A DNA stretch of 64,000 nt, from the NCBI RefSeq assembly GCF_030013595.1, contig NZ_CP122768.1; one strand, given 5' to 3'. The stretch comes from Escherichia coli (GTDB taxonomy: Bacteria > Pseudomonadota > Gammaproteobacteria > Enterobacterales > Enterobacteriaceae). Positions within the stretch are counted from its first letter, which is position 1. Every line of letters starts with the position of its first letter. This document shows positions 6,001 to 9,000 of this stretch, in pieces. The position numbers were made by a program.

Positions 6001-9000
6001 ATTAGAATTGACTCTGGAAATGCATGTGTTGCCGATGGTAAAAAAACAACGTGGTTTACTGAATCAGTAATTATAATGCAAAACAACGAATCATTAGGCC
6101 GTGATGATACTTGGTTTAGAGTCAATCGCCCAACAATTAATGACCTACGTATAGAATATACTGTCGAGGCATCTAGGGATAAAGTTAATTGGATTCCTCA
6201 ATCTCACGTAACTATTAATCGGATTTCTGGAGAAGCTATTGATTGGGCGATTTATGAACACGGCGGAACGTCTTACCAGTGCCATCTTGAGGGCAAAAAG
6301 ATATGATGCACTATCATTAAATTGACTACGGCATCCAACTCTGGCTACAATCCGAACTGAGGCGTCGAAACCTCTTACAAGCGGTACGCAACCAACCCCG
6401 TCAGTGTTGGATTTTTTATGCCTATTTTTTCAGTGGTTGCATCATGTGCAACCACATCCCCGATCAATGTCGGGAGGGCGACGAATACAACACCCGAAAG
6501 GGGAATAAGTCCGCGGTACTTGTAGCCGTTTCGAACCTCCCGACGCCACTTTGGTTCTTCTTCGAAAAAGATACAAGAGGTCATCATGACAACCCAACTG
6601 ATCCCCGTTTTCAACGGAACTATCTCAAACGAAACCATCCTTCTATGCAACGCTCGCGATCTGCATGCCTTTCTCGAAGTAGGTAAGCGCTTTGCCACTT
6701 GGATCACCGAGCGACTTAGCGAGTATGAATTCGTAGAAAATCAGGACTATGTGATTGCTTCCCAAATTCGGGAAGCAAAAGGCCGGGGAGGCCACAACCG
6801 CAAGGACTACCACCTCACCCTAGATACCGCCAAAGAGCTGGCAATGGTTGAGCGCAACGAAAAAGGCCGCCAGATCCGCCGATACTTCATCGAGTGCGAG
6901 AAGAAGCTGCGCGAAGATACCACCAGCACACAATCCCCTCTGAATGTTGACATCATCATGCGCGTCAGAAACGGCTCAGTTACCCACATTGAGCACCACA
7001 AATCAGGCTCAGTTATCACCACAGAATGGGCAATTCACTTACTACGCAAAAGTGGATGGATTGTCATGCCACGCGATGAACTTCTTAACACGCCACTGGC
7101 CCAACTGATGCCCGAAAGCTTGCCTCAAACCGGAACCTGCGTCCGGTAACTGGTCCCATTAAAAAACACAACATCGATGTTATAGGTGGGGTTCTCTGCC
7201 CCATCTACCTTTGAAATTGCCAGCGATGCAAAATACCCGGCAAACTGTTGCTGAACCATGTTCACATAGTAGTCCGGGTAAATCTGCTGCACGATGCACT
7301 GCTGCGCTGGAATGCCGTAATTCGCGTAAAACGGCGACTCCCCCAACCCCAGCTTTAACGTCTGAATGAGCGTCGTCAGCCAGCCGTAGGAGAAATCACC
7401 GTTGGCGTCAGATTCTACAGCAACCCATTTTTTGTTGCCGTTCGCGTCGGTGACGCGGCCCCATGTTCTCATGCGTCAACCTTTCAAGTAAATTAGGGTA
7501 CCGGTAGCCAGAGCGGTACAAATGATCCACGCTACTGGAGTCAGAATATGCCGAATACCCTGACATACTGCGATTATTCTCGCAGCCTTATCAGCTCCTT
7601 GTGGGGTTGTCTCAGCCTTAAGAATCAGTTCGCTATCCATTTAGAACCTTTATGATCTCTGCGATTCCCGGAAGCGATTTAGCAACTGCAAACCCTCCGA
7701 TAACTATAAGAACTGCATAAAACATTCTTCTCAGAACCGGACTTCTTTCGAGCAATTTTAGAGCTTCCACAATCCAGTCTCCTCCGCTAAAATTAATCAC
7801 GGAAGACCTCCAAACATACGTAATTATCCCTTGCCTTATTCAAGGTCAGAAACAGAAAGCCCCGACTGTTTGCCCAGTCGGGGCTTTCGCTTTATGGATA
7901 GAATTTAAAGTGAAATGAACCGGTATTAACCCGGATTTGGTTTCTTTGACGTGATCGTGCTGTTGCCGCTTTGAACCCCAGTCACATCGTGGCTGTGACC
8001 GCTGGCGCTGACACCTTTTATCATCGCGTCGTTTTGCACAGTAAGCGGGCCAATCAGCGAAGCGGTTGTATCCTTCATCTGGGCTTTGTCCTGGACGATC
8101 GGTCCGTTGAGGTGAATTTTCCCGTTCAGGAAAATATCTTCGGCCTCGAGGTAAACAGCTTTCGACTTTTGCCTGATTTCTTCCGGTGCCACCGTTACCG
8201 AGCTACTGCCGTCCTCTGTTTTGAGGATCGCGCCATCCGGACCGTACAAAACGATCTTTTGCGGATCTTCGTCGGACCAGTCCTTGTTTGCCAGTGGCAC
8301 GAAAAACAGTGGAGTGAGCGACATCGAGTAAGAGAGCGTCGCCATACCGGTTCCCAATCCGGACACACCGCGCAGGGATACATCAGCGGCAATTGTTACT
8401 CCTCGATCGCCCGGCTGTATCGGGTAACGAATATACGGGAATGTGGCGACAGGGATTGTTATCTGCGGAAAGTTGATCCCCTCCGGCAGCATATCAAACT
8501 GAACTGTCACTATCTGCCCGCTGACACCGACAACATGGCAGGGCAATTCACGACCTTTAAGCTCGGCTTGCTGGTTACCAGAACTGGTCATCATCTCCGA
8601 CAGCGTTCGGAGAAACGGTAATTTTTGAGCGTTTGACATTACACCCTCGCCCAGTTCTCAGCATATGCCTCAAATACCGTCACCCAGGCATCGCCATCGG
8701 CTGTCAGATACGAACCAATGTGTCTGACCGATTTCACAAGAAATTTCCCGGTGAACGTGGTCGAATTTTTTGCGATAACGCTGGGTGCCGTTGTATTAGC
8801 CATCACAATCGACGCAGCACCTGAATATAGCCCCTCCGGCAGTTTAACCACATCACCACATCTGATATCGCCCCTCATAGGGCATTTGAAGCTGACGGTA
8901 AACGGCGCTATCCATGTCGGCTGCCCGACCAGTTCATGGGCATGAATTGTTTTTGGCTCACCCCACTTTGCCGATGCGTTATCGTAGATTCGTATTCTGT

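Follow-up and report, generated by a model that had tools for sequence, protein, structure and literature searches.

Two small, probably membrane-bound proteins and a bidirectional terminator-like hairpin in an exchangeable cassette between baseplate genes of a Rac-like Escherichia coli prophage

What could be the role of two very small hydrophobic open reading frames (ORFs), preceded by a strong hairpin, within the tail operon of a prophage? The question is raised by a locus in a stretch of 64,000 nucleotides of Escherichia coli DNA (contig NZ_CP122768.1 of assembly GCF_030013595.1), here called the window, which holds an intact Rac-like lambdoid prophage integrated beside ttcA. All structural genes of this prophage are on the minus strand, and between a V-like baseplate spike gene and a W-like gene the RefSeq/PGAP annotation is empty (7473-7925), so that ORF1 and ORF2, the two small genes considered here, are absent from it. 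We infer that they belong to an accessory cassette of the late operon, in which membrane proteins that are toxic or linked to lysis would be kept locked by a terminator and an antisense RNA, a reading to which we would give a probability of a little over one half (about 0.55). The parts on which it is built are these:

7476..7640, minus strand: ORF2 (family B), 54 amino acids, ATG start, a single C-terminal hydrophobic segment (residues 36-52)
7633..7800, minus strand: ORF1 (family A), 55 amino acids, GTG start, one hydrophobic segment (residues 27-43)
7801..7854, minus strand: cassette leader of 54 nucleotides (nt), with a conserved block and a Shine-Dalgarno sequence at 7807-7811
7847..7896, both strands: bidirectional intrinsic-terminator-like hairpin, stem 7855-7868 / 7875-7888, loop 7869-7874

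Both ORFs are real genes that evolve as proteins under strong purifying selection. By the Nei-Gojobori method the ratio of non-synonymous to synonymous change (dN/dS) in ORF1 is 0.13-0.25 at dS above 1, while in ORF2 dS is saturated at a dN of 0.05-0.2, and comparison of ORF2 with the E. coli W copy gives 28 synonymous and 5 non-synonymous differences over 47 codons. Homologues of the two in E. coli and Salmonella are 57-98% identical and more distant ones are found down to 35-47%; the exact ORF1 sequence is present on 211 contigs and the exact ORF2 sequence on 183, always named hypothetical. A profile search of 1.8 billion representative proteins recovered family-A members of 36-88 amino acids with a common pattern, in which an N-terminal NF..G(D/E)WIV.AL is followed by ..LRR and then by a hydrophobic helix. 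The genes are tightly packed, ORF1 having its Shine-Dalgarno sequence GGAGG (7807-7811) 6 nt ahead of the start codon (7798-7800), and the ATG of ORF2 lying within the last codons of ORF1 with an overlap of 8 nt, ATGGATAG; 3 nt separate the TGA of ORF2 from the W-like ATG. A preliminary description of the locus had proposed two closely spaced small hydrophobic ORFs, and this was correct. Its further proposal of translational coupling is supported by the spacing of ORF1, ORF2 and W, and relatives also appear to keep their last small ORF coupled to W, for instance through an ATGA overlap. A search for the ORFs in related prophages, which it had named as a check, found them conserved and gave no refutation.

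In each protein the single hydrophobic segment belongs to the C-terminal half and has more lysine and arginine on its N-terminal side, and the AlphaFold models consist of a short helix and one long helix (pLDDT, the model confidence, 87 for ORF1 and 70 for ORF2). The two are thus probably single-helix inner-membrane proteins with a cytoplasmic N-terminus. At 55 and 54 amino acids both fall within the size range of type I toxins, which are small, hydrophobic and of about 60 residues or fewer. Searches for a named relative were negative throughout: neither protein has a match in Pfam (E up to 1), PHROGs, NCBIfam or PADLOC, a PDB profile search gave only noise in the form of a designed coiled coil and helices of G-protein-coupled receptors, and Foldseek comparison of the ORF1 model with viral structures returned nothing at E below 4. 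Families A and B have no detectable relation to each other by profile-profile comparison (probability 0.9%). All seven small families met in this study are named in their sources only as 'hypothetical' or 'putative bacteriophage protein', and no description of these genes was found in the literature on AgvB, on small proteins of lysis cassettes or on phage Rac-SA53. A role as spanins was considered and dropped, as a C-terminal helix with almost no periplasmic domain is the wrong topology.

Family A has a further peculiarity, which is seen in ORF1 as an internal GGAGGAG (7779-7785) followed by a GTG at codon 11 (7768-7770). The valine at codon 10-11 is encoded by GTG in 14 of 14 genes, and the glycine two codons before it by the rare GGA in 12 of 14, so that a GGAG stands 8 nt upstream of an in-frame GTG, at which several gene callers place the start. 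It is possible that family A has a second start, in a dual-start arrangement.

The comparison of related phages showed that the cassette is an insertion, absent from distant relatives and with a content that is swapped among close ones. Eighty viral contigs encoding a relative of the W-like protein were fetched, and the V-W gap could be measured in 79. It is 0-17 nt in 27 of the 79, which are the more distant loci (W 77-84% identical), whereas all close relatives (W at least 95% identical) have a gap of 244-1528 nt with at least one intact small ORF encoding a C-terminal hydrophobic segment. The hairpin is found in nearly all of the close relatives by a strict pattern search, and folding reveals it in variants that the search missed. 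One to four small membrane-protein genes are present in varying combinations, and the slot contents were as follows:

Family D gene of 45 amino acids alone (rac58 of phage Rac-SA53): about 19 loci
Family A variant of 53 amino acids, its stop overlapping the W ATG: 15 loci
Three or four small genes in a row, in some cases together with an antirepressor-like gene and a second hairpin: 8 loci
Family B alone: 4 loci
A plus B, as in the window: 4 loci
A plus truncated B: 2 loci
Hybrid of an A-type N-terminus and a D-type C-terminus: 1 locus

The commonest slot variant of 282 nt holds an intact family-A variant of 53 amino acids whose stop overlaps the W start, and in all slot variants the last small ORF adjoins or overlaps the start of W, whereby the ancestral translational chain from V to W is preserved. 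Relatives can have two or three terminators within a single V-W slot. The G+C content of the slot is 0.44 (0.41 in ORF1) against 0.52-0.53 for V and W. The slot therefore has two of the features of a moron, namely extra DNA relative to relatives and a deviating base composition. It does not have another, a downstream terminator of its own, because the hairpin is upstream and ORF2 runs up to W; one distant member (locus L130) does have a downstream terminator. The preliminary description regarded small membrane proteins in a tail operon as unusual. They are an insertion that distant relatives lack, and to that extent the remark stands, but there is a precedent in HK97 gp15 (PMC3594210).

The hairpin itself is a perfect stem of 14 bp with 9 G-C pairs and a loop of 6 nt, and an A-tract and a T-tract on either side extend the inverted repeat to arms of 22 nt, with the result that the stem is followed by a run of U on both strands. 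Its minus-strand tail is TGTTTCTG and its plus-strand tail GCTTTAT, so that the sequence has what is expected of a Rho-independent terminator, a GC-rich stem and a U-run, in both directions. The perfect hairpin with T-runs was noted in the preliminary description, which gave the stem as only 10 bp. A minus-strand fold of 136 nt around it has an energy of -45.2 kcal/mol (z = -3.85), and none of 200 shuffled sequences was as stable. Pairing is seen in 91% of cells over 16 close variants, where G-C/A-U and C-G/U-A exchanges occur, and of the 10 consensus pairs that RNAalifold gives for 12 divergent cassettes, 7 have compensatory changes. Wherever enough sequence was available ahead of a family-A gene, a hairpin stands 35-60 nt before the start codon, its stem different in sequence each time, and distant family-A cassettes in unrelated phage contexts retain the order of A-tract, GC stem and T-tract. 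The hairpin is kept by selection as a structure, through compensatory change. Wobble pairs and energies do not separate the strands (of 27 variants, 16 favour the sense and 11 the antisense strand in folding energy), and this similar stability, together with the conserved A-tract, would fit a terminator used in both directions. The early claim of a strong bidirectional hairpin was therefore well founded, given the compensatory changes in relatives and the near-equal stability of both strands, and the hairpin proved to be conserved when it was sought in relatives. An integron attC reading of the repeated hairpins was also tried and rejected, since neither an integrase nor attC boxes are present and the hairpin has the form of a terminator.

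Between hairpin and ORF1 the leader contains a block, TTTCTGACCTTGAATAAGGCAAGG (7829-7852), that is unique in the window and can form a small CCTT/AAGG stem-loop. A stretch of 21 nt in the leader, CTGACCTTGAATAAGGCAAGG, occurs in 37 viral contigs, always 3' of a hairpin and 5' of unrelated small genes of family A, D or F, and for this reason hairpin, leader and small ORFs are taken to be one portable unit. A minus-strand scan for sigma-70 promoters between hairpin and ORF1 found no site reaching 9/12. By eye a weak sense promoter can be seen in the leader (TTCTGA-17-GATAAT, 8/12), which other variants of the leader do not share.

These units are usually found in lambdoid phages, where endolysin and spanin genes flank them. 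In three lambdoid prophages from E. coli and Salmonella (L003, L007 and L008) family A is placed between the genes for the endolysin (lysozyme) and the Rz spanin; family B comes after an M15 endolysin in L004, and in L009 it is part of a tail-fibre region of Salmonella. Other small hydrophobic ORFs occupy the gap between R and Rz in phages PhiR5_2 and SPN3UB; these are families C, D and E, which correspond to PHROGs 1115, 6632 and 4906, all of unknown function. Several of the endolysins beside homologues have N-termini of the signal-anchor-release type, and the phages with these small genes already encode holins. One distant family-A member is a stand-alone unit in a moron region of the lom / tail-fibre / att type, and distant family-A genes are often beside Arc, Rha or KilA-N genes, that is, in immI-like modules. 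The N- and C-terminal halves of the small proteins recombine, for example through common ...IRWW ends. Family F is a mosaic of 50 amino acids with a C-type N-terminus and a D-type ...IRWW end (L015 and relatives), and it is found behind the same hairpin and leader in prophage CP-933O of O157:H7 EDL933 (AAG56189.1). The lysis cassette of the prophage studied here (26170-27100, minus strand) has a terminator-like hairpin after an M15 endolysin, a gene for an antirepressor N-terminal domain, a family E ORF of 44 amino acids (PHROG 4906) and Rz/Rz1. Nearby (27482-27755, minus strand) PGAP calls one of two holin genes frameshifted, and an uninterrupted ORF of 96 amino acids is present at 27480-27770. 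Type II toxin-antitoxin pairs occur near small-ORF cassettes in two other loci, Phd/YoeB in L135 (2240-2757) and HicAB in L008 (2741-3378).

Within ORF1 there is a candidate for an antisense promoter, from which an RNA can be predicted:

7766..7793, plus strand: antisense sigma-70-like promoter motif (TCCACA, 16 nt, TAAAAT), within ORF1 codons 3-12 and directed toward the hairpin
7799..7896, plus strand: putative antisense RNA, about 95 nt long, from the ORF1 start codon to the hairpin

The RNA would start about 7 nt past TAAAAT, have CCUCC opposite the Shine-Dalgarno sequence and be complementary to start codon and leader; its predicted fold has an energy of -37 kcal/mol (z = -5.2; -5.18 unrounded). 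In all 14 family-A genes obtained as DNA, including those only 35-47% identical, the motif is found in one register at 8-10 of 12 positions, and in one of them a change from F to Y turns TAAAAT into a perfect TGnTATAAT. As background, a score of 9/12 is reached in 2% of 61 annotated genes of the window and in 1.2% of random windows matched for A+T content. When codons were shuffled with the amino acids fixed, P was 0.03-0.48 for single genes and 0.003 by Fisher combination over 11 lineages. Other ORFs that come first in their cassettes score 10/12 (family F, with the strongest antisense motif, TGGACA-18-TATACT), 9/12 (family C) and 7 or 8/12 (family D), and those that come second reach 5-7; on the same scale the psar promoter of P22, which was defined by experiment, has 8.

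Masking of a ribosome-binding site by antisense RNA is the mode of action of P22 sar on ant, and likewise of type I antitoxin RNAs. In the annotated layout of sar and ant a GC-rich hairpin lies just 5' of the ribosome-binding site, a weak promoter in the first codons is directed backward, and a short RNA covers the site and ends at the hairpin. The same order is found here as a matter of sequence geometry, where the motif (7766-7793) is followed on the plus strand by the start codon (7798-7800) and then by the hairpin (7855-7888). As in P22 the unit is inside a late structural operon, the hairpin is similar in sequence, and antirepressor genes are neighbours of small-ORF cassettes both in the window and in several relatives. 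When a profile of hairpin and leader was searched with nhmmer against 8 kb of P22, the sole match was the sar terminator (E = 2.6e-5). The differences are that the regulated gene here encodes a membrane protein of 55 amino acids and not Ant, that the RNA is a predicted one, that similarity is confined to a hairpin of roughly 48 nt, and that there is no Arc/Mnt operator or Pant-like promoter upstream.

Taken in sequence, the events we would propose are as follows. The unit comprises a bidirectional terminator, a conserved leader and two genes for small inner-membrane proteins that would be chained in translation to each other and to W. ORF1 and ORF2 would be read only by antiterminated late transcription that passes through the hairpin. 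Dependence on such transcription is fairly well supported, as there is no convincing sigma-70 promoter after the hairpin and several terminators are tolerated in the slot. In the opposite direction, the promoter inside ORF1 would fire backwards to give the RNA of about 95 nt, which would end at the hairpin and mask the ORF1 ribosome-binding site. Terminator and antisense RNA together would then keep the proteins off in the lysogen, and they would appear only when late transcription floods the locus. They would insert in the cytoplasmic membrane and act in envelope events late in infection, where they might tune the timing of lysis by way of holin, endolysin or spanin, a proposal that is the weakest link of the chain. 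That the genes would be locked twice points to a harmful product, and this, with the endolysin-spanin home, hints at a late membrane role, most likely in lysis tuning.

In size, in their single transmembrane helix and in the presence of homologues beside endolysin genes, the two proteins resemble holins, antiholins and the Mu releasin gp25, and the possible dual start of family A, with its invariant internal GTG after GGAG, is a likeness to holins and antiholins. Releasin is mostly cytoplasmic with a one-helix tether (PMC9239132), and its helix is N-terminal. ORF1 and ORF2 would also be mostly cytoplasmic with a one-helix tether, but their helix is C-terminal, they have no holin or DUF2730 match, the copy in the window is in a tail operon, and the two possible starts are 10 codons apart rather than 1-3. 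The homologues adjoin endolysins, as holins and antiholins would, and the window copy does not.

Several points weigh against the reading of a locked, lysis-linked cassette. The antisense motif overlaps the most conserved residues of family A (N/D-F, W-I-V-E/K), and protein constraint could explain much of its conservation; the 14 family-A lineages are moreover not fully independent. For these two reasons we hold the antisense RNA from a promoter internal to ORF1 to be likely but unproven. The Rfam model of sar (RF00262) matches at its full length (7830-7891, plus strand), at a sub-threshold 24.0 bits against a gathering score of 43 (E = 0.088), and GC-rich terminators can converge in sequence. 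Expression by antiterminated transcription alone is a prediction, and some expression in the lysogen through the weak TTCTGA-17-GATAAT is conceivable. In the window the cassette is part of the tail operon, some 19 kb away from the endolysin, and no holin, toxin or defence family in the profile libraries matches ORF1 or ORF2. Finally, the fast turnover of the slot between near-identical phages would suit conflict or exclusion as well as lysis.

This last point leads to the main rival, that the cassette is a moron expressed in the lysogen for superinfection exclusion, with two inner-membrane proteins that block DNA entry of other phages. The model for it is HK97 gp15, a small inner-membrane superinfection-exclusion protein whose gene, a moron in the tail operon, has a promoter and a terminator to itself and is active in the prophage (PMC3594210). 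The likeness is that of a small membrane-protein gene of deviating, low-GC base composition added between tail genes (PMC3594210). The rapid combinatorial turnover among near-identical phages is typical of conflict genes, the distant family-A member that stands alone in a moron region would be at home there, and the weak promoter in the leader is a possible source of lysogenic expression. However that candidate is not conserved in other leaders and no promoter reaches the scan threshold between hairpin and ORF1; unlike in HK97 the terminator is upstream of the genes and not downstream of them, and the genes are chained to W. Profile searches found no similarity of either ORF to YebO/gp15, SieA/B, Cor or Imm, and the predominant location of the units is the lysis cassette. 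On this balance exclusion seems to us unlikely, though it deserves to be kept in mind before any other alternative. Ranked after it, and rather improbable, is an addiction module similar to type I toxin-antitoxin systems, in which ORF1 would act as a toxin that depolarises the membrane, with the antisense RNA as an unstable antitoxin, and the module would stabilise the prophage and not serve the lytic cycle. ORF1 is indeed small and hydrophobic, and its antisense motif is directed at a bidirectional terminator across Shine-Dalgarno sequence and start codon, an arrangement reminiscent of hok/sok, symE/symR and shoB/ohsC, where a gene for a small hydrophobic protein has its 5' region covered by a cis-antisense RNA that ends at a terminator of its own. 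Two known systems of this type occur in the prophage, with sok-like and RalA antitoxin RNAs (at 31891-32064, minus strand, and 44339-44795; the sok match has 97.6 bits and RalA/RalR 218 bits). Against this, the genes have no dedicated sense promoter such as toxins have, and they lie inside a late structural operon of the phage, to which they would be translationally chained; there is a second small gene, and ORF2 and the other families that come second in cassettes are without antisense motifs. No Rfam antitoxin family reaches threshold in the region (ohsC has 22.8 bits against 50), and the location between endolysin and spanin points to use in the lytic cycle.

It may also be asked whether the proteins matter at all. 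In Gifsy-1 a read-through terminator is followed by a small ORF, orf45, with its ribosome-binding site in a hairpin and coupled to the next gene, anrP, again with antirepressor neighbours, and the peptide is not conserved; IsrK, the RNA of this system, is a sense-strand small RNA that acts in trans as an activator (PMC4825925). By analogy the small ORFs here might only hand ribosomes on to W, the peptide sequence being unimportant, and the tight chaining of ORF1, ORF2 and W, as well as the last small ORF of relatives that always adjoins or overlaps the W start, would accord with this. But in the precedent nucleotides are conserved and the peptide varies (PMC4825925), and the pattern here is the opposite one of conserved peptides with saturated synonymous sites. 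The hydrophobic segment and the N-terminal motif persist at 35-47% identity in unrelated contexts, the ancestral coupling of V and W had no spacer, and the RNA predicted here is antisense; at gathering score no Rfam family was found in the region, IsrK, IsrJ, AgvB and AsxR included. We therefore think translated spacers very improbable. The view that the ORFs occur by chance and that the hairpin is merely the terminator of the V gene could draw on the missing annotation and on the frequency with which ORFs of about 55 codons arise by chance, and is refuted: both are under purifying selection, the exact sequences recur on about 200 contigs each, the families are conserved across genera and contexts, and the hairpin travels with the small ORFs and not with V.

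Beyond the window the locked late-operon cassette might be one instance of something wider. It is tempting, though doubtful at present, to see in hairpin, leader and first ORF a widespread and portable class of 'guarded micro-gene' cassettes of enterobacterial temperate phages, in which terminator and sar-like RNA would lock a possibly dual-start protein, and recombination at hairpin and leader would shuffle cassettes among lysis, tail and immI-like regions. Insertions of small membrane-protein genes in tail operons, bidirectional terminators and antisense control of ribosome-binding sites are of kinds already known. The novelty lies in two protein families that had not been described, in the cassette slot between V and W, and in the regular combination of hairpin, leader and in-ORF antisense motif, which recurs in many phage contexts.

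The neighbours of the cassette follow on the minus strand in the order hub (8639-9646), V-like spike gene, small-ORF cassette, W-like gene, J/gp47-family gene, tail-fibre genes and tail-fibre assembly gene, which corresponds to the P2-type order V-W-J-I-H-G. The two that flank it directly are:

7926..8639, minus strand: V-like baseplate spike gene, 237 amino acids, upstream neighbour, its stop codon 37 nt ahead of the hairpin
7125..7472, minus strand: W-like gene, 115 amino acids, PHROG 7986, downstream neighbour, which adjoins V directly in distant relatives

Their V and W labels are only partly verified. The V-like gene is called 'phage baseplate protein' or bppV in relatives, and its matches to the P2 gpV profile TIGR01644 (E = 0.0036; 16.9 bits against a cut-off of 46.75) and to an Apex motif (E = 0.061; 13.9 bits against 20.8) are below the cut-offs. 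The W-like gene has no match to a gpW/gp25 profile, its sole match being PHROG 7986 of unknown function, and the label follows from size and V-W-J-I-H-G synteny.

A second insertion in the baseplate module lies between the W-like and J-like genes on the opposite strand (5275-7149, plus strand). It has two AT-rich ORFs (GC 0.36), at least one with an N-terminus like a signal peptide, and an AntA-family antirepressor gene (6586-7149, plus strand) whose 3' end overlaps the 3' end of W by 25 nt; read-through from the latter would cross W, ORF2 and ORF1 in antisense as far as the hairpin. Directly 5' of the antirepressor gene is a full-length match to the Rfam family sRNA-Xcc1 (6469-6552, plus strand; 78 bits against a gathering score of 53), and this element is conserved at the corresponding position of four related viral contigs. 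Elsewhere in the prophage, a gene of 478 amino acids between terminase and head genes (21127-22563, minus strand) is named 'anti-CBASS protein Acb1 family' by PGAP, and its position would suit a portal protein. Past the prophage end the host chromosome has the RNAs FnrS, RNA-OUT and McaS (49105-49222, 51791-51860 and 57427-57522), of which RNA-OUT is an antisense RNA of the IS10 type and implies an insertion sequence nearby. GenBank entry PP818812.1, Actinobacillus phage vB_Apl-pPE4 with the label Actinobacillus pleuropneumoniae, is 95.8% identical to the prophage over V, W and ant, and this host assignment looks doubtful.

The analysis adds two conserved phage genes that are missing from the RefSeq annotation of this genome, and whose families are absent from Pfam, PHROGs and NCBIfam. 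It also shows the V-W junction of Rac-like prophages to be a slot for cassettes, and as such a candidate source of differences between strains in how their phages behave, among E. coli pathogenic in pigs and cattle. If the antisense lock were true, a mechanism known from the single classic case of P22 sar would apply to a wide range of genes for small membrane proteins, and there would be a simple sequence signature by which such genes could be found. With its two genes, the cassette is also a tractable case in which to approach the function of the small proteins so often encoded in the interval from endolysin to spanin.

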